Assembly: GCA_039679815.1 (NCBI GenBank)
Contig: JBDKUG010000191.1
Coordinates: 1 to 51,322, forward strand
DNA length: 51,322 nucleotides
Origin: Smithella sp.
GTDB taxonomy: Bacteria; Desulfobacterota; Syntrophia; Syntrophales; Smithellaceae
Direction: 5' to 3'
A program made the position numbers and the translations under genes. Position 1 is the stretch's first letter. Each line of letters begins with the position of its first letter. The notes beneath the pieces were generated by a model. That model saw only the letters and a list, made by a program, of their open reading frames with translations. It had not been told where the DNA came from and did no database searches. Positions 3,128 to 49,115 of this stretch are shown here, one piece after another.

Positions 3128-4285
3128 TTAAAAAGCCTGCGCGTAAATCGCAATCATTTCTTCTTTTGTCATTTTGCGCGGATTGTTCTCCAGCGGCCGC
3201 GCAACGGTCATGGCCACATCCGCCAGTGACGGAAAATCGTCCTCCTTCACGTCAAAATCCCGTATCGAGGAAGTGATACCGCAATCTTCAATCAATGATT
3301 CAACCGCGTCCACGGCCAGGTAGGCGGCTTCACGCAGCGGGAGCCCGTCGATGCATTCCCCCATCGCCTCGGCAACGTCGGCAAACTTTTCCAGCGCTCC
3401 GGGCAGATTAAACGCCATGACCGGTGCCAGCAGGATCGTATTGGCCAGTCCGTGACCAACGCCAAACTTCCCTCCCAGCGGGTAAGACAGGGAATGAAGG
3501 GCGGTGACGCCCGCGTTGGCCAGGCCGATGCCCGCATAAAGGCTGCCCAGCAGCATTCTTTCCCGGGCGGTAATGTTTTTGCCGTCATGCACACAGGTGC
3601 GCAGATTCTCGGCAATCAGCGCGATGGCTTCGAGTGAAAACATTTCGCTGAGCGGTGAAGCGTTGATTGACGTATAGGATTCGATCGCGTGGCACAAAGC
3701 GTCCAGACCGGTGTACGCCGTGGGCTCCGGCGGGAGGCTGAGCGTAAGTTCCGGATCCAGAAGCGCCAGATCGGGATAAAGATGCGGACTGTTCATTCCT
3801 TCTTTCTTTTTGAGGTTCTTGCGAATAAAAACCGCGGTGAATGTCACTTCGCTACCGGTGCCCGCAGTCGTGGGAATCATGATTTTGGGCAGACCCGGTT
3901 TCGGGACTTTATTCAACCCCAGATAATCTACCGCAGCACCCTTATTGGTTGCAATCACGGCAATGGCCTTAGCCACGTCCATGGCGGAACCGCCGCCTAT
4001 GCCGATCACACTGTCGCATTTATTTTTCAGAGACAGCGCTGCGCCTTCATCCGCCAGTTCGATGCGGGGTTCCGGTTCCACCCTGTCAAATAAGGTAAAC
4101 TTGATGCCCTCGGACACCAGAATGCTGGCGATTTTTTCCTGCAGTCCGGTTTTCGCGAGATTTTTATCCATAACAACCAGAGGATTTTGTGCGTGATGTT
4201 CTTTAAGATGTGAAGCAAGGGTTAGAAGCGATCCGTTGCCGAAGATAATTTTTTTGGCGCCGGTAAACGAAAATATTTTTCTCAT
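3128..4285 (-). CDS. iron-containing (group III) alcohol dehydrogenase
   Basis: 385-aa ORF with GIGGGSAMDVAKAIA and ...TGLDALCHAIESYTS... motifs. It sits 14 nt upstream of the aminotransferase on the same strand. Confidence 0.85.
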   Translation of the reverse strand: MRKIFSFTGAKKIIFGNGSLLTLASHLKEHHAQNPLVVMDKNLAKTGLQEKIASILVSEGIKFTLFDRVEPEPRIELADEGAALSLKNKCDSVIGIGGGSAMDVAKAIAVIATNKGAAVDYLGLNKVPKPGLPKIMIPTTAGTGSEVTFTAVFIRKNLKKKEGMNSPHLYPDLALLDPELTLSLPPEPTAYTGLDALCHAIESYTSINASPLSEMFSLEAIALIAENLRTCVHDGKNITARERMLLGSLYAGIGLANAGVTALHSLSYPLGGKFGVGHGLANTILLAPVMAFNLPGALEKFADVAEAMGECIDGLPLREAAYLAVDAVESLIEDCGITSSIRDFDVKEDDFPSLADVAMTVARPLENNPRKMTKEEMIAIYAQAF

Positions 4286-5206: not shown

Positions 5207-5893
5207 TCAACAAAACTCAATCTGACCGAAGCTTGTCGGATCGTGAAAATTCCTCTCCCGAAGCGGTGACCAGGAAAGCCAGTGGGGATGAGAGGTCTCA
5301 TTGCCGCATTTATAAAAATTAGCTTGCCAGATTTGTCCCGCCACGGCGCCAATCGGCCCTGTGTATTTTTCTAAAACTGCAAAAGGAATTGAAAATTCCA
5401 GATGCCAGACCATCGGTGTCGGAATTTCCGGCTCGACCATTCGGGGCAGAGTTGAAAAACGCCGGATTTGCCGGTCATCACTCGATGCCAGCGGCTGAAA
5501 TTCTTTCAAACGGCCATCCCTACGCACAGGATTGGTCACATGGGAGGCGAGAAGTGCGCCGCCGCCATTAAACTCAAAATTAAAGTAGCCTCCGTCAACG
5601 TTCGGCTGCACAAAAAACTCCACACAGCTGTCTTTCCAGACATCGCTTTGAAAACCGGTATGGACCGAGCGCACGTACTGATCTTCCACACGGAAAATGC
5701 CATAAATATTCCGGTCATTATACAGCAGTTTACACAGTGTTCGGGGTTGATGAGAGCTCCCTTCAGGCCGGCGGCAATCCACGGCGAGAGGCGGAGCATG
5801 ACGCCAGACGGCGCCCTGCCATATCCCCTGCATTTCGGGAAGTTGGCGGGTAAATAATATTTTGTAGGATGGCTGATTTATGACATTTATCAT
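5207..5893 (-). CDS. carbohydrate-binding family 9-like domain protein (hypothetical)
   Basis: ~228-aa ORF. Segments ...DSCVEFFVQP...YFNFEFN...ANFYKCGNETSHPHWLSWSP... resemble CBM9-like/DOMON-like proteins. The assignment is from memory of the family only. Confidence 0.45.
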   Translation of the reverse strand: MINVINQPSYKILFTRQLPEMQGIWQGAVWRHAPPLAVDCRRPEGSSHQPRTLCKLLYNDRNIYGIFRVEDQYVRSVHTGFQSDVWKDSCVEFFVQPNVDGGYFNFEFNGGGALLASHVTNPVRRDGRLKEFQPLASSDDRQIRRFSTLPRMVEPEIPTPMVWHLEFSIPFAVLEKYTGPIGAVAGQIWQANFYKCGNETSHPHWLSWSPLRERNFHDPTSFGQIEFC

Positions 5894-5929
5894 TTGCTGC
5901 AATGCCTGTTTTTTGCTAATTCAACATTC

Positions 5930-6592
5930 ATGAACCCGGATATGCTCTACCTTCAGCAGAACGCCAGACTCCTGGGCGTCGAACTTGATGAAAAACAACT
6001 CGCCCTTTTTGATTTATACCAAAATGAGCTCTTAAAGTGGAACGAGAAAACCAACCTGATCTCTGAAAAAACGACAGGCGATATCGTAAAGCGTCATTTT
6101 CTGGATTCGCTGACGGCGGCCCGTTTTATCACTCTTCCACACTCCAGGATCGTGGATGTAGGTTCCGGCGCAGGGTTTCCGGGCATCCCTTTAAAAATTT
6201 CTCTTCCGTCCATACAACTTTACCTTCTGGAATCCAATCGCAAAAAGGTATCTTTTTTAAAACAGGTTATACGCCTTTTGAAACTGGAAAACACGTTCAT
6301 CATCCATGACCGGACGGAAAACGTCACCCGCACGGATGCGTGGCGTGAAAAATTTGAAATGGTCATCTCACGGGCCGCTTTTAAACTATCCGATCTGCTG
6401 CCCCTGGGACGGTATTTTCTCGTCCCGGAAGGCCTGTTGATAACTCTAAAGGGCCAGGACGTTTCCTCCGAATTGAAAACAGCTTTAGAAGACGAAAACA
6501 CATCAAAAATATATCAAATAAATCAATATGATATAAATAAATCGCTTTTGGGTCCGCCTCGCAAAATTATTATTGCCCGAAAGACAAAATAA
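5930..6592 (+). CDS. rsmG: 16S rRNA (guanine527-N7)-methyltransferase RsmG (GidB)
   Basis: Contains ...LLKWNEKTNLIS...IVKRHFLDSL...VDVGSGAGFPGIPLKI... and lies directly upstream of parA-parB. The start is uncertain (TTG 5894, ATG 5930 or ATG 5942). Confidence 0.85.
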   Translation: MNPDMLYLQQNARLLGVELDEKQLALFDLYQNELLKWNEKTNLISEKTTGDIVKRHFLDSLTAARFITLPHSRIVDVGSGAGFPGIPLKISLPSIQLYLLESNRKKVSFLKQVIRLLKLENTFIIHDRTENVTRTDAWREKFEMVISRAAFKLSDLLPLGRYFLVPEGLLITLKGQDVSSELKTALEDENTSKIYQINQYDINKSLLGPPRKIIIARKTK

Positions 6593-6682
6593 AGCAAAAA
6601 ACCCTTCTAAAAAACCCTTTTTTGTGTTACTCATTGCCAAAGTTTTTCAAAAAGAAATTTTCGAAAGACTTACACAAAAATA

Positions 6683-7450
6683 ATGAATAAAATCATATGC
6701 ATCGCAAATCAAAAGGGCGGCGTCGGCAAAACAACGACAGCGGTTAATTTATCTGCAGCACTTGCTGCAGCAGGAAAGAAAACTCTGCTCATCGATGCCG
6801 ACTCTCAAGGCAATGCCACCAGCGGGCTGGGCATCGACAGAATCCTTCATGGACAATCTAATTTTTACCATGCCATGATCGGACAGGTAACACTGGATTC
6901 CGTAATTGTCGAAACAGCTCTGCCCTATCTGCATATGGTTCCGTCCAATCAGGACCTGATTGGGATGGAAGTTGAATTTGTTCATCTGGAAGATCGTGAA
7001 GTGCGGCTGCGCAAGTTGTTGCAATCCATGAACGGATCCTATGATTTTATTATTATTGACTGCCCGCCGTCACTGGGTTTCATGACGGTCAACGCTCTCG
7101 TTGCCGCTCACGCTTTGATTGTTCCGCTGCAGTGCGAGTACTATGCGTTGGAGGGTCTGAGCTACCTGCTCAATACCGTCAAGCTGGTAAAAGCGAATTT
7201 AAATCCCGATCTGTCTCTGGACGGTATTTTGCTGACCATGTTTGATGCTCGAAATTCACTGGCGCATCGCGTTGCGGAGGATGTGCGCAAACATCTGGGC
7301 AGTAAGGTTTTAAAAACCATTATCCCGCGAAACGTCAGGCTTTCCGAAAGTCCGAGTCATGGATTGCCGATTATCCTGTATGACGTCAAATCGCGGGGAG
7401 CATTTGCGTATATGGCTCTGGCGGAAGAAATTCTTCGGAGGGGAATGTAA
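6683..7450 (+). CDS. parA: chromosome partitioning ATPase ParA/Soj
   Basis: Deviant Walker A IANQKGGVGKTTTAVNLS, with ...IIIDCPPSLG... Followed immediately by parB. Confidence 0.92.
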   Translation: MNKIICIANQKGGVGKTTTAVNLSAALAAAGKKTLLIDADSQGNATSGLGIDRILHGQSNFYHAMIGQVTLDSVIVETALPYLHMVPSNQDLIGMEVEFVHLEDREVRLRKLLQSMNGSYDFIIIDCPPSLGFMTVNALVAAHALIVPLQCEYYALEGLSYLLNTVKLVKANLNPDLSLDGILLTMFDARNSLAHRVAEDVRKHLGSKVLKTIIPRNVRLSESPSHGLPIILYDVKSRGAFAYMALAEEILRRGM

Positions 7451-8308
7451 ATGGCGCAAAAAAAAGACGCGCTGGGCAAGGGACTGGGTGCTATTTTTCC
7501 CGATTTACTCGAAAAAAATAACGGCAAAAGTGTACCAACCAGCACTTGCGGTATTGAGGAGCTGCGCCCGAACCGGTATCAACCCCGGAAAACGTTTAAC
7601 GACGAAGACCAGAAGAGACTCGTCGCTTCCATAAAGCAAACCGGCATCATTCAGCCGATCATTGTCCGCAAAACCGAACAGGGTTATGAAATTATTGCCG
7701 GAGAGCGGCGGTGGAGAGCGGCACAAATGGCAGGTTTAAAGGACGTTCCGATTGTCGTGCGGAAAGCCTCGGATCTGGAGGTGGCCCAATTATCTCTGAT
7801 TGAAAATTTGCTGCGCGAAGAGCTCAATCCCCTGGAAGAAGCCGATGCCTACCTCACACTGATGGAAAAGTTCAACCTTTCGCAGGAGTCGATATCTGCA
7901 CAGGTCGGTAAAGATCGTTCGACGATTGCCAATACTGTCCGGCTTTTAAAGCTGCCAGCCAGGGCCAAGACCGCTCTGGTGGAAAAAAAAATCACGTCGG
8001 GTCATGCACGCTGTCTTTTGGCGCTTTCCTCAATGGAAGAACAGTTGACCATGTTGGATCTTATTTTAAAACGAGATCTTAACGTCCGGGAAACAGAAAA
8101 ATTGATAACCCGGTTAAAGCAAAAGCCCGGTGAAAAAAAGGCCATTGTAAAAGATCGTTACATGTCGGATCTTGAAAAATCCCTGACGGTCAAATGTATG
8201 GCGAGGGTGCAGATCAAAGGGTCAGCCAATAAAGGTGCAATTGAAATCACATACAAATCCATGGATGAATTAAACCGTCTGGCGCGCTATCTGCTGGATG
8301 AACTGTAA
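7451..8308 (+). CDS. parB: chromosome partitioning protein ParB/Spo0J
   Basis: Contains ...NRYQPRK.F....L..L..SI...G..QPI.VR...YEIIAGERRWRAA... (the ParB box GERRWRAA). The start abuts the parA stop. Confidence 0.92.
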   Translation: MAQKKDALGKGLGAIFPDLLEKNNGKSVPTSTCGIEELRPNRYQPRKTFNDEDQKRLVASIKQTGIIQPIIVRKTEQGYEIIAGERRWRAAQMAGLKDVPIVVRKASDLEVAQLSLIENLLREELNPLEEADAYLTLMEKFNLSQESISAQVGKDRSTIANTVRLLKLPARAKTALVEKKITSGHARCLLALSSMEEQLTMLDLILKRDLNVRETEKLITRLKQKPGEKKAIVKDRYMSDLEKSLTVKCMARVQIKGSANKGAIEITYKSMDELNRLARYLLDEL

Positions 8309-8320
8309 TAGAGACAATAT

Positions 8321-8348
8321 CAACCTATCCACAGTTGTTGATAGGTTG
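8321..8348. promoter_or_regulatory. DnaA-box-like 9-mer embedded in a 9-bp inverted repeat just upstream of dnaA
   Basis: CTATCCACA (8325-8333) has one mismatch to TTATCCACA. The flanking arms CAACCTATC (8321-8329) and GATAGGTTG (8340-8348) are perfectly complementary. Confidence 0.4.
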
Positions 8349-8365
8349 TTTACTAAAGGGTGAAG

Positions 8366-9721
8366 ATGGAATCAGTTTGGGACAAAGCTACTAAAATCAT
8401 TCAGGATAAAGTTTCAAAACAGAACTTTGACACCTGGATAAAACCCATCAAAATCATGGCAATGGAAGATAAGTGTATTCAGTTGGCTGTTCCGAATAAA
8501 TTTTTTAAGGACTGGCTGATGGATAATTATTTATCCATGATTAAAAATACCCTGCACAATGTAATCGGCATCAATGTTGATATTGATTTTATTTTAAGCA
8601 GGGATAAGGAAAAAAAGCCGGAAGCAGCGGTATTGCCGTTTGAACAGGACCGTAATCAGGCTGGAAACAGTCACGCCAACCGTAATAAGAACATTTCGTT
8701 TTTAAACGGCAATTATACATTTGACCGTTTCGTTGTTGGTCCGTCCAACCAGTTTGCTCATGCTGCTTCCATTGCCGTGGCCAAGCAGCCGGCAAAAAAC
8801 TATAATCCCCTTTTTATTTACGGCGGTTCAGGGCTGGGAAAAACACATCTGCTCAATGCTATTGGTCTGATGACAACCGCCTCTCATCCCGATTTGAATG
8901 TCATGTATGTGTCGGCGGAAGCCTTCATGAATGAAATGATCAATTCCATCCGTTACGACCGAATGTCGAAATTTCGCGAAAAATATCGGAACATCGGATC
9001 ATTGCTGATTGATGATATTCATTTTCTGGCCGGTAAGGACAGAACGCAGGAAGAATTTTTCCATACGTTCAATACCCTGCATGATTCCGGCAAGCAGATT
9101 GTCGTCACTTCCGATAAATTTCCCAAAGATATCCCAAACCTGGAGGGAAGATTACGGTCCCGGTTCGAATGGGGGTTAATTGCCGATATTCAACCACCGG
9201 AAATTGAAACAAAAATCGCTATTATCGAAAAGAAAATGCACGAAATTAAAATCGAGCTTACTCCCGCCGTTGCTCATTATATCGCGTCGTATGTGGAGTC
9301 CAACATCCGGGAACTGGAAGGTTTCCTGATCCGAATATCCGCTTATTCCTCTTTAACCAACAGGGAGATTGATCTGGATCTGGTAAAAGAAGTGCTGAAA
9401 AAACTGGTTAAACACAACAACAAAGAAGAAGTGAGTGTGGAAGAAATTATTAAAGTGGTTGCCGGAAAAATGAATGTGAAGATCGCAGATATCAAAGCCC
9501 ATAACAAGAATAAAAATCTTGTATTAGCCCGACAGGTTTCTATGTACCTTGCAAGGAAGTTAACGAACTTTTCATATCCTGATATCGGGCAGAAGATCGG
9601 CGGACGCGATCATTCAACGGTTATTTATGCAAACAATAAAATCTTAAAATCGATGGAATCAAATTTAAATTTTACAAAAATGGTTCAGGATATTGAAGAC
9701 AGTATTATCAACAAAGCGTAA
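8366..9721 (+). CDS. dnaA: chromosomal replication initiator DnaA
   Basis: Contains ...FDRFVVGPSNQFAHAA...NPLFIYGGSGLGKTHLL... and C-terminal ...ARQVSMYLARKLTNFSYPDIG..GGRDHSTV.YA... An alternative GTG start lies at 8360 (ORF track). Confidence 0.95.
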   Translation: MESVWDKATKIIQDKVSKQNFDTWIKPIKIMAMEDKCIQLAVPNKFFKDWLMDNYLSMIKNTLHNVIGINVDIDFILSRDKEKKPEAAVLPFEQDRNQAGNSHANRNKNISFLNGNYTFDRFVVGPSNQFAHAASIAVAKQPAKNYNPLFIYGGSGLGKTHLLNAIGLMTTASHPDLNVMYVSAEAFMNEMINSIRYDRMSKFREKYRNIGSLLIDDIHFLAGKDRTQEEFFHTFNTLHDSGKQIVVTSDKFPKDIPNLEGRLRSRFEWGLIADIQPPEIETKIAIIEKKMHEIKIELTPAVAHYIASYVESNIRELEGFLIRISAYSSLTNREIDLDLVKEVLKKLVKHNNKEEVSVEEIIKVVAGKMNVKIADIKAHNKNKNLVLARQVSMYLARKLTNFSYPDIGQKIGGRDHSTVIYANNKILKSMESNLNFTKMVQDIEDSIINKA

Positions 9722-9878
9722 AATAATTTTACATGTTTATTCCACAAGGGTTCTTTATTGAAAGAATTGAAATTAAAAAAGAATTTATAGCAATCAACAT
9801 ATCCACAGGGCTTATTACTATTACTAATTATTTATATATGAAAAAAATAAGAGAGAAATAAGAGAATGGGAGGAGAGG
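9722..9878. other. candidate oriC / DNA-unwinding region in the dnaA-dnaN spacer
   Basis: 157-nt non-coding spacer. ATATCCACA (9799-9807) has one mismatch to the DnaA box, and TATTCCACA (9738-9746) is a relaxed match. These are followed by a very AT-rich run, CTTATTACTATTACTAATTATTTATATATGAAAAAAATAAG (9811-9851). Confidence 0.45.
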
Positions 9879-13452
<3,574 letters not shown>

Positions 13453-13524
13453 CAGTAACAGGAAAGAAAACGATTCAACCGGCTGTTTTGGCCGTTTTGT
13501 TGTCACAAGAGAGGAAAGAAGAAA

Positions 13525-16035
13525 ATGGAACGAGATATCCACCATAAGCAAACCCTGGTGAATATAGAAGATGAAATGAAGAAATCCTACATGGATTACT
13601 CCATGAGCGTTATCATTGGCCGGGCGATTCCAGATGTGCGTGACGGCCTGAAGCCGGTGCACCGGCGGATATTGTACGCTATGTATGAAATGGGCTATCG
13701 TCACAATAAGCCCTACAAGAAATGCGCCCGCGTTGTCGGCGATATCATGGGTAAATATCATCCGCATGGTGATGCGGCCATTTATGACACGCTGGTGCGG
13801 ATGGCGCAGGATTTTTCTCTGCGTTATATGCTTATTGATGGACAGGGCAACTTCGGTTCGATTGATGGCGATCCTCCAGCAGCCATGCGTTACACGGAAA
13901 GCCGTCTGGCGCGCATTTCCGACGAGGTGATGGCCGATCTGGAAAAAGATACGGTCGATTACGTGCCCAACTATGATGAATCCCTTACAGAGCCATCGAT
14001 TCTCGCGACACGCCTTCCGCTTTTACTGTTGAACGGGACATCAGGTATCGCCGTCGGCATGGCGACCAACGTCCCGCCCCATAATTTAAAAGAAATCATC
14101 AACGGCACCATCGCGCTCATCAACAATCCCAAGATGATTATTGAAGAGCTGATGAAGTACATTCCCGGACCGGACTTTCCGACGGCCGGTTTCATCAACG
14201 GCCGTGAGGGAATTCTCTCAGCCTATAAAACAGGGCGCGGCATTATCCGTGTCCGGGCGCGGGCGCTGATTGAAAAGAATGCCCGCAACGACAAGGAAAC
14301 AATAGTTGTTACCGAGCTGCCGTATCAGGTCAATAAAGCGGTCCTGATTGAAAAAATAGCCGAACTGGTGCGTGACAAGAAAATAGCCGGAATTTCTGAT
14401 TTGCGCGACGAATCAGACCGGGAAGGCATCCGCGTCGTGATTGAGCTCAAGCGTGATGAGAATTCTGCTATTATTCTAAATCAGCTTTATAAATTCACCC
14501 AGATGGAAGTCTCGTTCGGCATTATCATGCTGGCTATTTCTGAAAACCGTCCGCAGGTTTTCAATCTCAAAGAAGTTCTCGAGAAGTTTATTGCTTTTCG
14601 CCAGGAAGTAGTTGTCCGCCGCACGCAGTTTGATCTGGCGCGCGCAAAAGAACGGGCGCATATTCTGGAAGGCTATATCATAGCCTTGAACAATATCGAT
14701 GAAATCATTAAAGTCATCAAGGCGTCCAAAAACCCAAACGAAGCATCGGTGGCGTTATGTGCGAAATTCAATTTGTCGGAGATTCAGGCCAAAGCCATTC
14801 TGGAAATGAGACTGCAACGCCTTACCGGACTGGAAAGAGACAAGATTGATGCCGAATATGCGGAAGTGACTTCATTGATTGCAAAGCTGGCCGGCATCCT
14901 GGCTGACCCGAAGAAAGTCCTGCAGGTGATTATTGACGAACTCAATGATATAAAAAATAAATATGGTGATGAACGCCGCACGGAAATTGTCGCCAGCACC
15001 GAAGACATCAATATTGAAGACATGATCGTAGAAGAAGATGTGGTGGTCACGATATCTCACGCCGGATACATCAAGCGCAACGCGGTCAGTTTATATAAGA
15101 GCCAGCACCGCGGGGGACGGGGCAAAGTCGGCATGGGGACCAAAGAAGAGGACTTTGTAGAAAAGATCTTTATCGCCTCCACGCATCATTACCTTTTAGT
15201 CTTCACCAGCGCGGGCAAAGTGCACTGGCTGAAAGTGTATCAGATTCCGCAGGCAGGCCGGGCCGCCAAAGGCAAGGCAATGGTTAATCTGGTCAGCCTG
15301 GCGCCCGGAGAGCGCGTCAGCGCGACCCTGCCAGTCAAGGAATTTGTTTCGGATAAATTCGTAGTGATGGTAACCAGAAAGGGCATTATCAAAAAGACCG
15401 ATCTGGCGGCTTATTCCAATCCGCGGGCAGGGGGCATTATCGCAATATCCATAGACGATGATGACGAACTGGTAGATGTTCAGCTGACTAACGGTGATCA
15501 GGATATTTTCCTCGCGACGAAACTCGGCATGGCGATTCGTTTCCGGGAAGATGATGTCCGCGATATGGGCCGGACGGCACGCGGCGTGCGCGGCATCAAT
15601 CTGGATGAGGGTGACGACGTTATCGGTGTGGATATTCCCGCTCAAAACACTTACATGCTGACCATTTCGGAAAACGGTTTCGGCAAATGTACACCGATTG
15701 ATGAATATCGTGTGCAGTCACGAGGTGGCAAGGGCACCATCAACCTGAAAACGGTGGCAAAGATCGGCAATGTCTCCGGTGTTTTGCAGGTGCAGGGCGA
15801 AGAGAACATCATGCTCATCAGCAATGCCGGCAAGGTCATCCGGCTGAAGGTGCAGGAGGTCCCGATTAATCATCGTGTGACCCAGGGCGTCAAACTCATT
15901 GACCTGGAGCCGGAAGAAAAACTCGTCGGCGTCGCCCGCACAACGCAGGAAGCCGAAGGCCCGGATGACGGAGCTAACGGCGATGATGAGACGGATGTGA
16001 CGACAGAAGAAAACAGCACACCGGAAGAAGACTAG
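13525..16035 (+). CDS. gyrA: DNA gyrase subunit A
   Basis: 836-aa ORF with ...[29 protein letters not shown]...[22 protein letters not shown]...MRYTE.RL... and an acidic C-terminal tail. Confidence 0.97.
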
Positions 16036-18034: not shown

Positions 18035-18165
18035 CTACCGAAACCGTTATGTTCGATGCTTTAATCCCGCTGCTGCGGGACGAGCGTTAATTCTCCGAAG
18101 CTTGCGGAGATATAATAACGTTCATTTCATACCTCGAAAGCTTGCAGCTAGGTGGTTGATTGAAG

Positions 18166-18341
18166 CAGCCGGATGAGCATACCTTTTGCTCAGCATCCCC
18201 TGCAACTGTGGCTCTAATGCTTATTTCGCGACAGTCGAAGACTCGCCCTGCGGGCTCAAACAGTTCGACTGTCTGATGCTCCATTACGCAAAGAGCCACA
18301 ATGTTTCGGGGATATTCGCTCAAGGTATGCCCATCCGGCTG
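18166..18341. repeat. nested long-hairpin element, copy 1 (candidate structured ncRNA or recombinase-recognised element)
   Basis: The 18-nt outer arms at 18166-18183 and 18324-18341 pair at 17 of 18 positions. Inner perfect stems are 18207-18215/18292-18300 and 18230-18239/18264-18273, with an apical GCCC-TGC-GGGC. It is homologous to 47680-47933 (reverse orientation), with conserved loops and covarying stems. Confidence 0.55.
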
Positions 18342-18433
18342 ATTATTTTAGTTTAATTAAATGTTCCTGTTCGAATTGACTTTTTTACAGGCTCGGCATA
18401 AGAAGACCATATGAATAAAATGCGGAGAACAGC

Positions 18434-18748
18434 ATGGCCGAAATTATTTTAGACGAAAGTGAAGACTGGGATAAACGCGTTTTGTGCAGTGACGAGTCCT
18501 GCATCGGCACGATCGGTGCGGACGGAAAATGCAGGGAATGCGGTAAAACTTATGAGGGCGTTCTCCCCCAGGGTCACGATAAAGAAACTGCTGAACCTGT
18601 CATCATAGAGAAAACAAATCCTGTTTCATCGGAAGACTTCGCCTCCGATGATGAATGGGACAAAAGGGTTTTGTGCAGTGACGGCACCTGCATAGGCGTG
18701 ATCGGACCGGACGGCAAGTGCAGGGAATGCGGGAAACCATTATCGTAA
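18434..18748 (+). CDS. small acidic protein with two tandem CxxxxC...CxxC zinc-ribbon modules (hypothetical)
   Basis: 104-aa ORF. The module WDKRVLCSD(E/G)(S/T)CIG(T/V)IG(A/P)DGKCRECGK occurs twice (nt 18467-18547 and 18656-18736). A strong terminator hairpin follows. Confidence 0.6.
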   Translation: MAEIILDESEDWDKRVLCSDESCIGTIGADGKCRECGKTYEGVLPQGHDKETAEPVIIEKTNPVSSEDFASDDEWDKRVLCSDGTCIGVIGPDGKCRECGKPLS

Positions 18749-18786: not shown

Positions 18787-18875
18787 CAGCTGGTTCAGTC
18801 ATGTTGACTGAACCAGCTGTTTTGTATGATTAAACTTAAACTAAGGATTCAATCTACAAGATTGAACCCGCAAGG
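18787..18875. repeat. double-hairpin repeat, copy 1; the first hairpin doubles as the intrinsic terminator of the zinc-ribbon gene
   Basis: Hairpin 1 is CAGCTGGTTCAGTCA-TGT-TGACTGAACCAGCTG followed by TTTTG. Hairpin 2 is GGATTCAATCT-ACA-AGATTGAACCC followed by GCAA. The same unit recurs at 48723-48806, and split at 47659-47957. Confidence 0.75.
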
Positions 18876-18877
18876 AT

Positions 18878-18918
18878 AAAGAAAGAGGCAGGTGGAAATT
18901 GCATCTGCCTCTTTCTTT
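18878..18918. terminator. A/T-flanked hairpin between convergent transcription units (bidirectional terminator candidate)
   Basis: AAAGAAAGAGGCAG (18878-18891) and CTGCCTCTTTCTTT (18905-18918) form a perfect 14-bp stem. It lies between the + zinc-ribbon gene and the minus paaK-ACT operon. Confidence 0.55.
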
Positions 18919-18962
18919 ATATCAAGATATTTATGAATTTTTAGCCGGAGCTTTTTTCAAAT

Positions 18963-19199
18963 TTAGCGGACATACCTTGAGGCATTCATCGCAGCCAATC
19001 CAGTAATTGTGTCCGGCGATTTGAGTATTCCGCGGGGAACGGTAATGCCAAAGACAATAACGGTTTGTGCATTCCGGCAAACACGGGCCGGATGATGTGC
19101 CTCGGGTGCGGCGGCAAATCGATCTACAGATGCGAAACCAAAATCGGTTACCATCGGTTTTAAAAAATTGATAATGGTATGCTTTAAGATAGCACTCAT
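18963..19199 (-). CDS. 78-aa ORF translationally coupled to the ACT gene; resembles only the N-terminal part of larger Fe-S/QueG-like proteins (possibly truncated)
   Basis: Its ATG overlaps the ACT gene stop (TAATG). The sequence ...DFGFASVDRFAAAPEAHHPARV...TVIVFGITVP.G... resembles N-termini of longer proteins, and no Cys-cluster region follows. Confidence 0.35.
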   Translation of the reverse strand: MSAILKHTIINFLKPMVTDFGFASVDRFAAAPEAHHPARVCRNAQTVIVFGITVPRGILKSPDTITGLAAMNASRYVR

Positions 19200-47567: not shown

Positions 47568-47597
47568 AAACGCGAATTCGGGACGGTAAAATGGTCC

Positions 47598-47653
47598 CTT
47601 CGACAGGCTCAGGGACCGAATAATAATGGAGACGGTAGCTGAGCTTGTCGAAG
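47598..47653. repeat. long palindromic repeat with variable centre, copy 1
   Basis: Arms CTTCGACAGGCTCAG (47598-47612) and CTGAGCTTGTCGAAG (47639-47653) pair at 14 of 15 positions plus one G-T. The same arms and the GGGACCG..ATAAT.GAGA.GG core recur at 48942-49016. Confidence 0.6.
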
Positions 47654-47658
47654 CTCCC

Positions 47659-47957
47659 GCTGGTTCAGTCATGTTCGGGCTGTTGCCCAAACGATATCCC
47701 TTTGAGTGGCCATTGAAAGCGTTTTGTTTCATAACTGAAGGCCTGTGGCCTTCCCGGTAAGGAATATACGAATTATTGCGCTTCGCAAATGCTGCGCGCT
47801 TCCGGTCAAGGCGCAGTGAAAGATCAGTAATGACAACTGTTTGAGCCGCAGGCGAGTTTTGTCATTACCTTTCGCAAGCTTTAGATTTATTCAAAACACT
47901 TTCAGGCGAGCGAAAAGGATATTTGGGCAACAGACCGTGCAACGATTGAACCCGCAA
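47659..47957. repeat. double-hairpin repeat, split copy whose centre is replaced by the nested-hairpin element
   Basis: GCTGGTTCAGTCATGT (47659-47674) and ATTGAACCCGCAA (47945-47957) match the two ends of the 18787-18875 and 48723-48806 units. The interior is different sequence. Confidence 0.5.
47680..47933. repeat. nested long-hairpin element, copy 2 (reverse orientation relative to 18166-18341)
   Basis: The outer arms are CTGTTGCCCAAACGATATCCC (47680-47700) and GGATATTTGGGCAACAG (47917-47933). The inner perfect stem is GTAATGACAA (47827-47836) / TTGTCATTAC (47859-47868). The loop CTGTTTGAGCCGCAGGCGAGT is the reverse complement of the copy-1 loop apart from a paired C/G deletion. Confidence 0.55.
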
Positions 47958-48143
47958 AGATAACATAATAAAGAATTGCGACGCAGTCTCTCCGCCAGAA
48001 TGGCATTATTTAAGGTTATATCGGAGTAATAACTTGGTCAGTAAATCGGAAGAGATGCGTTTTACGGTAAACGAAAGCCAGAGGGCCTGCGGATTGATGT
48101 GTTTGTGGTAGTGAGTTTTTTGACTCGCGATTGCGCGCATGTT

Positions 48144-48419
48144 TTAAATTCTGGTATTGATGTCTTTGTAGACAGATTTTCGATGCTTGATGCCTAGGAT
48201 CCATACTTCAGACGCCAGCAATTTGAATACAATCCGATAATCGCCAACTCGCAGCTTCCAATAGCCTTTAAGCGACTTACGCAATGGTTCTCCGTAGTCT
48301 TGTGGCGCAGTTTGCAATCTTTCCTCAATTGCCTTGCGGATTCTGTTTCTTGTTTTTTGATCGATCAGCGGTAAATCTTCCGTGTGTACGGCCTGATGAT
48401 AACGCAAAGTGAAAAACAT
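48144..48419 (-). CDS. type II toxin, RelE/ParE superfamily
   Basis: 91-aa ORF with ...RIRKAIEERLQTAPQDYGEPLRKSLKGYWKLRVGDYRIVFKL..SEVWILGIKHRK.VY.. It lies 3 nt downstream of an RHH antitoxin ORF. Confidence 0.8.
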   Translation of the reverse strand: MFFTLRYHQAVHTEDLPLIDQKTRNRIRKAIEERLQTAPQDYGEPLRKSLKGYWKLRVGDYRIVFKLLASEVWILGIKHRKSVYKDINTRI

Positions 48420-48422
48420 AGA

Positions 48423-48650
48423 TTATTTCCAAACGTCTTCGTGTGATAGAGCCGATTTTTTATGGAATGTTTTTATCCGTTTGTCGGCAAGAGCCGCAAG
48501 TGCAATATCTTCACGCAATTCAAGTGCCTCACGAATCAGATCTCGGGCAAGAGTGGACATAGAGACACCTCCATTAGCTGCCAGATCGGACATAGCTTTA
48601 TATAGTGGCGGTTCAACGACAACATTTACCCTGGGGCTTTTTGTAGGCAT
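48423..48650 (-). CDS. type II antitoxin, ribbon-helix-helix (CopG/RelB-like)
   Basis: MPTKSPRVNVVVEPPLYKAMSDLAANGGVSMSTLARDLIREAL... shows a beta-strand then helix-helix pattern. The ATG at 48650 has an AAGGAG RBS; the ORF track extends to 48701. Confidence 0.7.
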   Translation of the reverse strand: MPTKSPRVNVVVEPPLYKAMSDLAANGGVSMSTLARDLIREALELREDIALAALADKRIKTFHKKSALSHEDVWK

Positions 48651-48722
48651 ATTTTTATCTCCTTTGAAAACAAGTGTAACACTTATGATACACCACGTCA
48701 AGGCGAAATAATTTTCTCCGGG

Positions 48723-48806
48723 CTGGTTCAGTCATATGACTGAACCAGATGTTTTGCATGATTAAACTCACAACCAAGGGTTCAATCTGCAAGATTGAAC
48801 CCGCAA
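48723..48806. repeat. double-hairpin repeat, copy 3
   Basis: CTGGTTCAGTCA-TA-TGACTGAACCAG, then TGTTTTGCATGATTAAACT, then GGGTTCAATCT-GCA-AGATTGAACCC followed by GCAA. Most positions are identical to 18787-18875. Confidence 0.75.
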
Positions 48807-48941
48807 AAATTTCTCCCCCTGATCTTAACTCACCCATGGGGTGATCCCCTCCTCAGATAAATTCCCGTCACTCCCCTTATATTTCAAAGATCTATCCGAT
48901 TTGCAAGATCCTCAACTGCTGTTTTTAGGATTAAACGCGCC

Positions 48942-49016
48942 CTTCGACAAGCTCAGGGACCGGACGATAATAGAGAGGGTGCCTGAATATAGCGAGGGTC
49001 GCTGAGCCTGTCGAAG
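48942..49016. repeat. long palindromic repeat with variable centre, copy 2
   Basis: Arms CTTCGACAAGCTCAG (48942-48956) and CTGAGCCTGTCGAAG (49002-49016). It has the same orientation as copy 1, and the central part is about 20 nt longer. Confidence 0.6.
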
Positions 49017-49115
49017 CGTCGAAGCCCCTGTGTAAAAAAATATTGGCGCTTGAGCATAAAAGTTGCTAGTAAAGCTTTGGAAACGTTTATGACTGTTACC
49101 GAAGGATTTAAAGAC

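Follow-up and report, generated by a model that had tools for sequence, protein, structure and literature searches.

A nested-hairpin element seated between the two ends of a split double-hairpin repeat in Smithella

The radical-SAM to hisH spacer and its split repeat

The stretch of Smithella sp. DNA analysed here, contig JBDKUG010000191.1, positions 1 to 51,322, hereafter called the window, carries rsmG, parA, parB, dnaA, dnaN, gyrB, gyrA, an archease gene and rtcB, and further on mnmG, a TIGR01212 radical-SAM gene, hisH and hisF. A cluster of repeats lies in the spacer that separates hisH from the radical-SAM gene; it reads, in order, a D2 hairpin, a split copy of a double-hairpin repeat (DH), a ParE/ribbon-helix-helix (RHH) cassette, an intact DH and a second D2 hairpin. 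Our subject is the split copy, which lies just 3' of the radical-SAM gene in the same orientation and in which a nested-hairpin element (NH), of a subfamily that we term NH-B, stands between the two ends of DH (Table 1). Loci fetched for comparison carry L numbers.

On the + strand the site reads gaagCTCCC GCTGGTTCAGTCATGTT / CGGGCTGTTGCCCAAACGATATCC ... GGATATTTGGGCAACAGACCG / TGCAACGATTGAACCCGCAA agataac, the slashes marking the two junctions. The left 16-mer of DH, GCTGGTTCAGTCATGT, occurs at 18789, 47659 and 48722, and with up to two mismatches it has 4 matches in the window against 0.00 expected from shuffled sequence; the right 13-mer, ATTGAACCCGCAA, occurs at 18861, 47945 and 48794, three times against 0.19 expected, and 0 shuffles gave three. 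From these two ends the initial annotation had recognised a split repeat with NH between its ends, and the sequence reads as it claimed, but each match runs further than the 16 and 13 nt first given: the left continues to 47675, and the right begins at 47938, where it reads TGCAA-C-GATTGAACCCGCAA with one additional C relative to intact DH. Because both matches reach into the hairpin loops, what the split copy has lost is precisely the two inner arms, right in hairpin 1 and left in hairpin 2, with the spacer between them. The replacement of the DH centre by NH thus stands as first described, with 56 nt missing rather than about 57 and with the element at 47676-47937 rather than 47680-47933. 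Both DH/NH junctions lie at hairpin loops. One of the two intact copies had been placed correctly, at 18787-18875, and the other begins at 48721 instead of 48723.

The surviving DH ends pair with each other and lengthen the NH stem, so that the split copy folds into one hairpin of ~300 nt (-119.9 kcal/mol, z = -6.2), and the complementary strand has an equally stable fold. Five independent read-level assemblies (L001-L005) are 100% identical to the window over the left junction, which is therefore not an artefact of the window's assembly, and all five end at 47705, a common stop that fits a dispersed repeat beginning at 47676. The window is the only place where the right junction was seen.

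Table 1. Coordinates of the repeats and of the cassette genes in the window.
Feature	Coordinates	Strand	Remarks
DH left flank CTCCC	47654..47658	+	CTCC(C/G) precedes GCTGG in the window copies, L125, L128, L145, L173, L181, L185 and L162
DH left end (hairpin 1 left arm and loop), GCTGGTTCAGTCATGTT	47659..47675	+	identical to 18789-18805
NH-B (nested-hairpin element, subfamily B)	47676..47937	+	262 nt; limits from homology to other copies
Extra segment within NH-B	47735..47804	+	70 nt with small hairpins of its own; absent from most copies (alignment with L048)
NH apical motif, ACTGTTTGAGCCGCAGGCGAGT	47836..47857	+	common to NH-A at 18241-18264 (-)
DH right end (hairpin 2 loop and right arm), TGCAACGATTGAACCCGCAA	47938..47957	+	orthologous to AACCCGCAAAGAA in L125
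Intact DH, copy A	18787..18875	+	-23.9 kcal/mol, z = -8.1 (DNA fold)
Intact DH, copy B	48721..48806	+	-24.4 kcal/mol, z = -7.3 (DNA fold); absent in L128
NH-A (diverged subfamily A, earlier 'copy 1')	18163..18344	-	-96.4 kcal/mol, z = -8.8
D2 repeat, copy 1	47576..47653	+	arms 47598-47618 / 47633-47653; directly 5' of the split copy
D2 repeat, copy 2	48933..49028	+	arms 48942-48961 / 48997-49016; ends the repeat cluster before hisH
ParE-type toxin, Pfam PF05016	48144-48419	-	between the split copy and intact DH copy B
Ribbon-helix-helix antitoxin, Pfam PF07878	48423-48701	-	between the split copy and intact DH copy B

The double hairpin and its likely RAYT

Each intact DH folds as two strong hairpins, one per half; either half is a near-perfect palindrome, and the two are related (GGTTCAGTCA and GGTTCAATCT). 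The outer arm GCTGGTTCAGTC is a near-copy, inverted, of the outer arm GATTGAACCCGC, and it is these two that pair in the fold of the split copy. The hairpins also occur singly, hairpin 1 in L125/L126 and hairpin 2 in L153 and in L158/L162. Copy A lies between the stop codon of a gene for a 104-aa protein and a terminator hairpin at 18876-18920, and a DH is present after this gene in the window, in L089 and in L181-L184. The outgroups L187, L189 and L190 carry only the terminator there, which marks DH as a gained element.

A metagenome scan with the hairpin 2 arm returned 51 loci, of which 7 are members of the family, the others being mostly chance matches within genes, and it led to two contigs in which DH accompanies a gene for a REP-associated tyrosine transposase (RAYT). 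In L162 a full DH (7195-7279) is followed after 17 nt by an open reading frame (ORF; 7296-7799) and, just beyond that, by a solo hairpin 2 (7816-7844); L158 repeats this layout at 96.8% identity. Once one frameshift is corrected, the L162 ORF encodes 167 aa and matches the RAYT profile NCBIfam NF047646 with 86 bits (cut-off 80, E = 2e-24) over profile positions 7-146 of 146, together with a weak match to Pfam Y1_Tnp (16.9 bits). Intact 167-aa homologues exist, the nearest being 97% identical and named Smithella sp. (NCBI) or RayT (JGI), and the family conserves the HUH motif (NHLH) and the tyrosines. RAYTs, enzymes of the HUH/Y1 type, act on single-stranded DNA where it forms hairpins. What characterises REPIN-RAYT systems is a RAYT gene with its own REP or REPIN on its flanks (Bertels & Rainey 2011, PMC3116915), and because DH and hairpin 2 flank such a gene in L162 and L158 we file DH as a REPIN-type doublet, one that largely qualifies as a REPIN. 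The initial annotation had raised a RAYT acting in trans as a candidate, and the 167-aa protein of these related contigs is the likely transposase of DH; DH has likely been spread by a RAYT encoded elsewhere in the genome.

The nested-hairpin element and its copies

NH-B is bounded by a terminal inverted repeat, CGGnCTGTTGCCCAAA ... TTTGGGCAACAGnCCG. Copies at 94-96% identity occur at about ten other Smithellaceae loci, among them L010, L021, L032, L036, L048, L079, L092, L093 and L121, and since their flanks are unrelated, NH-B is independent of the DH ends. A typical copy measures ~190 nt. The window copy is longer by the 70-nt segment at 47735-47804, which it has in common with L079, a different locus, and which resembles a CTTCCCGGTAAGGAA piece in L074; this segment is a further level of nesting. 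The NH-A of the window, which lies in the spacer between rtcB and the 104-aa gene, has only its architecture and its apical motif in common with NH-B.

Outside both of its ends NH-B usually has TTAA or TCAA (TTAA/TTAA in L007, TCAA/TCAA in L010, others imperfect). TTAA is its own reverse complement, and these flanks could thus be part of the inverted repeat or a target duplication. NH-B in the split copy instead has TGTT as its left flank and TGCA as its right one, exactly the two DH loop sequences. Copy-specific palindromes do not flank NH-B in general (6.67 against 5.56 of 12 positions, within the control range).

With terminal inverted repeats, no coding capacity and multiple copies at unrelated sites, NH-B has the traits of a MITE, a miniature transposable element with inverted repeats, and we class NH as a non-autonomous palindromic element that is probably mobile. 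Among the NH loci a RAYT-profile search gave a single weak and probably coincidental match, in L024. There, at 3612-4121 and 5526-6479, in a Geobacteraceae metagenome-assembled genome, a RAYT-like gene (NF047646 76 bits, just under the cut-off) is bounded by TGGGGTCAGGTCTTGCATCGCC inverted repeats, and a partial second copy lies directly beside NH; this is a single locus and may be coincidence.

An apical motif found across phyla

The apex that NH-A and NH-B have in common follows the consensus ACTGTTTGAGCC(C)GCAGG(G)CGAGT. ACT/AGT pairs close it, its internal loop is GUUUGA/G, and its mini-hairpin reads GCC-GCA-GGC or, as a variant, GCCC-GCA-GGGC; the stems on which it sits covary freely. A scan of one genome per GTDB species found exact matches at more than 118 loci in about ten phyla, against ~0.3 expected by chance on our own estimate. 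Among the matches listed, carriers belong to the Smithellaceae, Syntrophaceae, Geobacteraceae and Desulfuromonadales; to Acidithiobacillus; to many Burkholderiales; to Gammaproteobacteria (Zhongshania, Spongiibacter, Luminiphilus); and to Bacteroidota (Flavobacterium, Dysgonomonas, Flectobacillus, Nafulsella, Rikenellaceae, Saprospiraceae); and further carriers are found in Lachnospiraceae and other Clostridia, Acidobacteriota, Nitrospirota, Myxococcota and two Patescibacteria lineages. Often a genome has several copies, and often they lie at contig ends.

The stems beside the motif differ almost wholly in sequence from locus to locus, and their complementarity is kept. Over the 10 positions adjacent to the motif, 7.86 of 10 are paired, compared with 5.85 when arms are swapped between instances (97 instances), and in an Acidithiobacillus subfamily the outer 26 nt covary from one copy to the next (20.6 of 26, against 15.1). 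Copies of NH found through their arms alone carry the apical motif with 0-2 changes.

The motif has no counterpart in the collections that we searched. Rfam 15 gave no match at gathering score in the window and 18 diverse motif loci, and around both repeat regions, at E values up to 10, only noise (c-di-GMP-I-UAU at E = 8; miRNA-like matches on a terminator). It is absent from PLSDB plasmids (one chance partial match), INPHARED phages, all complete E. coli genomes and IMG/VR; full-text literature searches for motif strings and for peptide strings translated from D2 returned nothing relevant; and the lists of 'multicopy nucleotide sequences' that supplement two Geobacter genome papers lack the motif. 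By eye, the core positions of the apex do not fit 6S RNA, a hammerhead, a K-turn, group II intron domain V or a retron msd.

Outside Smithellaceae, additional conserved hairpin modules lie 60-200 nt 3' of the motif, in Betaproteobacteria (L013, L014, L016, L071, L075, L088, L123), Zhongshania (L046, L109), Bacteroidota (L082, L098, L103) and Patescibacteria (L072, L104). One of them reads ..GGGGTCGCC TTTTCTTTGGTTACTTTCTTT-loop-AAAGAAAGTGAC and is followed by a GC-rich hairpin. The modules suggest that there are larger mosaic units, which also cross phylum boundaries.

Locus history in relatives

The same spacer in related genomes holds different contents. In L192 (88% protein identity) it has a D2 hairpin only, with no DH, NH or cassette. 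L125 and L126 (90%) lack D2 at the position it takes in the window and read instead a whole hairpin 1, then half of a D2, then AACCCGCAAAGAA, without the cassette; their hairpin 1 shows a compensated arm change, from GCTGG..CCAGC to GCAGG..CCTGC. L127-L129 (87-89%) have the D2 hairpin, then the DH left end fused to CGGGCTGTTG(C/A)CCAAATA, then the toxin-antitoxin cassette. Their junction between left end and NH is the one seen in the window, with only ~18-27 nt of NH left beyond it, and a junction common to the window and L127-L129 must predate their split; NH itself appears to be eroded by later deletion in the L127-L129 lineages. Relative to L128, the window has three extras: 47692-48059, which comprises most of NH, the right end and ~100 nt more and has a short T-run at its bounds; DH copy B; and 48807-49035. 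Relative to L192, the extras of L128/L129 (the NH stump and the ParE/RHH cassette) all lie between the left end and CCCGCA, a remnant of the right end.

A second locus, after the 104-aa gene, shows comparable turnover. Where the window, L181 and L184 have an intact DH, L185 reads ctctcc GCTGGTTCAGTCAACAT / CGGGCTGTTGCCCAAAC / AAA ATTGAACCCGG, that is, a DH left end, a stump of NH-B and a DH right end. On the other side of the gene, the spacer from rtcB has an NH-A in the window, L181 and L183, lacks NH in L184 and has an NH-B of opposite orientation in L185, a case of one spacer colonised independently. In L185 the loop of hairpin 1 is flipped (AACAT, 1866-1882) relative to the window (ATGTT, 18802-18806), as though the palindrome had been turned about its midpoint.

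A second fixed junction, in which an end fragment of NH-B is joined to an intact DH, is found in L145/L180 and in L173, and L145 has two DHs 95 nt apart. The difference between the window and L128/L129 is the only candidate for an empty NH site among the fetched loci.

Neighbouring features

D2 is a third repeat family, of CTTCGACAGGCTCAGGGACC hairpins. Compared with L125, which reads aaacg/ctccc, copy 1 in the window is a clean insertion, and half copies of D2 occur inside the DH of L125 and 3' of the DH in L173. A fourth palindromic repeat, GGATTCCCGCCT(G/T)CGCGGGAATGAC, lies at 1330-1415 of L184 and in the right flanks of L029, L053 and L073, in the same Smithellaceae spacers.

The ParE/RHH cassette (48144-48701, - strand) is present in the window, L128 and L129 and absent from L125, L126 and L192. 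It stands between two DH units in the window and, in L128, within a single bracket formed by the left end and the right-end remnant. No transposase or recombinase gene was found in the window, either with Pfam on 49 ORFs or with the RAYT profile on all ORFs of at least 45 aa, as the initial annotation had stated for the neighbourhood of the repeat.

Positions 5894-16035 of the window (rsmG, parA, parB, dnaA, dnaN, gyrB, gyrA) form a chromosomal origin region. The 104-aa protein (18434-18748, + strand) has an internal duplication (18460-18547 / 18649-18736) and CxxC pairs, belongs to no Pfam family, is conserved beside rtcB throughout Smithellaceae and has more than 1000 homologues at E < 1e-10. 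Downstream of DH copy A, a Fer4_16 ferredoxin-like gene lacks ~489 nt of its middle at 19012-19018 and is thereby truncated in comparison with L181, whose 104-aa protein is 98% identical to that of the window.

Discussion

The contents of this spacer probably make up a nested composite of two non-autonomous palindromic elements, assembled by insertion or recombination as in BIME/REPIN clusters. The anatomy of the split copy, the independence of the two families, the link of DH to a RAYT and the turnover at orthologous loci are matters of observation. The initial annotation took the site as a sign of past mobility or recombination of non-coding elements, and this is borne out, with both element types present elsewhere between different flanks and with orthologous loci differing in their presence and content. 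Of its two proposals for how the site arose, neither suffices alone. Insertion of NH into a pre-existing repeat agrees with the existence of NH apart from DH ends and with the whole hairpin 1 kept in L125/L126, and a carrier with variable content agrees with DH ends that bracket an NH stump in L185, part of another repeat in L125 and a stump together with the cassette in L128/L129. That DH is of REPIN type and has a RAYT, that its hairpins also occur singly and that the NH family spans many phyla had escaped that annotation.

How could an element come to lie precisely between two loops? In an ancestor of the window and its closest relatives, NH-B would have come to stand between the loops of both REP hairpins, with the loss of 56 nt. 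It may have inserted into both DH loops, exposed when the doublet folds in single-stranded DNA, after which recombination between the two direct NH copies would have deleted the inner arms and the spacer; this two-loop route reproduces the junctions exactly. Flanks of TGTT and TGCA, rather than TTAA or TCAA, likewise fit a recombinant origin better than simple insertion. The product would be one long hairpin with the two surviving REP halves as its outermost stem. Both REP hairpins being destroyed, the split copy is probably no longer a substrate for a RAYT, and it would have been inherited vertically since, decaying by deletion in sister lineages. This order of events, like the enzymology of NH, we infer.

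Several observations weigh against the nested-composite reading. Among the fetched loci we found neither intermediate of the two-loop route: no DH has NH in a single loop, and no DH centre lies between two NH copies. L185 shows the arrangement of left end, NH-B stump and right end again at a different and unrelated locus. Insertion plus deletion, if independent, would have had to end alike on both occasions, and this favours a site-specific process, gene conversion between copies or a composite that spreads as a unit; a site-specific preference of NH-B for DH loops can explain this recurrence as well. For NH there is no sign of a parent insertion sequence (IS) or transposase, and ORF clustering found no protein family common beside 118 NH loci. 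On the side of DH, the evidence of a flanking RAYT comes from the related metagenome contigs L158 and L162 and not from the genome of the window; the RAYT is defective in both contigs (a frameshift in L162, TAT-to-TAG in L158); and no DH copy examined has a GTAG or CGTC tag beside either hairpin. The 51 kb of the window hold two intact DH copies and one split copy.

Could the DH ends instead be the working termini of a mobile unit with variable cargo, of which the split copy is a member that happens to carry NH? Its cargo would be the ordinary centre of 56 nt, or NH, or part of some other repeat, or else a toxin-antitoxin cassette, and the composites would spread, or replace one another, by transposition or gene conversion. 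We think this unlikely, although a good deal in the comparative data speaks for it. The same ends enclose an NH-B stump at the second locus of L185, in place of the ordinary centre present in the window, L181 and L184; those of L125 enclose the right arm of hairpin 1 and half of a D2; everything that L128/L129 have beyond L192 falls between the left end and the CCCGCA remnant; the junction of an NH-B fragment with an intact DH recurs in L145/L180 and L173; and the DH pair of L145, like the window copies that flank the cassette, recalls composite transposons. Yet about ten NH-B loci have no DH ends, each of the two hairpins is found alone, and the split copy retains no intact REP hairpin on which a hairpin-recognising RAYT should act. 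The contents, moreover, are mostly fragments, stumps and half repeats, which resemble decay and illegitimate recombination, and ends of 17-20 nt are short for homologous exchange.

Still less probable, in our judgement, is a reading of the ~300-nt hairpin as a structured RNA that is not translated, such as a stabiliser of the 3' untranslated region or a small RNA gene, so that the resemblance of its closing stem to DH would reflect RNA function and not mobility. The very stable fold, the invariant apex on stems that covary across phyla and the position of the element just 3' of a co-oriented gene speak in favour of such an RNA. But both strands fold equally well, mismatches in the arms show no excess of G-U over A-C (260 versus 251), orientation relative to neighbouring ORFs is random on a crude count and differs between lineages in one spacer, Rfam has no match even at the most permissive threshold, copies are gained and lost between close relatives, and the element interrupts assemblies in the manner of a dispersed repeat. 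That no protein family recurs beside the NH loci, and that the motif is missing from plasmids, phages, E. coli, IMG/VR and the literature searched, likewise speak for an element of DNA and against an RNA gene. The remaining notion, that the end matches arose by chance or from a chimeric assembly, is effectively refuted: short as the matches are (16 and 13 nt), and with the right junction seen in the window only, they far exceed the shuffle expectations and reach into the loops, the left junction is identical in five assemblies and kept in three relatives, the right end is orthologous to that of L125, and L185 has the same architecture.

The nested-composite reading, which we prefer, places the spacer among known kinds of repeats. 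DH resembles REPINs in its length of ~90 nt, in being built of two short palindromes that are related, have their outer halves inverted and are separated by a spacer, in its ability to fold as two hairpins or as one long hairpin, in its intergenic position after genes, in flanking a single RAYT gene in related contigs and in its compensated arm changes; for REPINs, hairpin or 'clover' folds are likewise possible and compensatory changes have been seen (PMC3116915). It differs from them in the missing tag and the defective RAYT copies, and the RAYT family to which the L162 ORF belongs is also found in Patescibacteria and anammox bacteria. Insertion of one element into another's repeats is familiar from IS1397, ISKpn1 and IS621, which insert into REP/BIME. 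Here, by contrast, the insert is a non-coding palindrome rather than a transposase-bearing IS, the host repeat lacks its inner half, and the replacement recurs at two loci. REP dimers are regularly nested in longer palindromes, and mosaics of several repeat families occur within one spacer (Di Nocera et al. 2013, PMC3733652); the window agrees with BIME-type mosaics in that unrelated palindromic families cluster in spacers, one inside another, with junctions at hairpin loops.

NH for its part resembles a large REPIN or a MITE; NH-B is like Correia/NEMIS, ERIC, RUP, Nezha and other bacterial MITEs in its 190-260 nt, terminal inverted repeats, lack of an ORF, long hairpin and multiple copies with different flanks, often with TTAA or TCAA on both sides. 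Unlike them it has no visible parent IS with NH ends, and conservation is greatest at the apex rather than at the termini. MITE families are, besides, usually confined to a genus or family, whereas the NH apex is invariant across many phyla. A small toxin-antitoxin cassette beside imperfect hairpin repeats, present or absent between relatives, is also reminiscent of integron attC cassettes. We rejected that comparison on account of the lack of R''/R' core sites (RYYYAAC/GTTRRRY), of an integrase among the 49 ORFs, of an attI site and of an array.

The apex invites a wider, and more tentative, proposal. NH may be part of an undescribed chromosomal palindromic family present in at least ten phyla (Thermodesulfobacteriota, Pseudomonadota, Bacteroidota, Bacillota, Acidobacteriota, Nitrospirota, Myxococcota and Patescibacteria among them), in which the essentially invariant 22-24-nt apex would mark where a putative protein of wide conservation docks, be it an enzyme that mobilises the elements in trans or a factor of the host. 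We hold this joint reading to be possible rather than probable; if it is true, the composite in the window is one meeting place of this apex family and a RAYT-driven REPIN.

In conclusion, a repeat within a repeat is in itself a clear case of a known phenomenon. It adds a new REPIN family with its RAYT in Smithellaceae, an uncultured family of syntrophs, and gives a base-by-base view of how close relatives come to gain, nest and erode such repeats, also around a toxin-antitoxin cassette. Repeats of this kind break short-read assemblies, as the five contigs that end at the same base illustrate, and knowing them aids genome closure in the family. What may be new is the NH family, and it is the more valuable lead, since an apex that is exact across phyla, in surroundings that vary and yet stay paired, is unlike ordinary REPs or MITEs; such a pattern points to a conserved partner, one that could be retrieved with a 24-nt bait.

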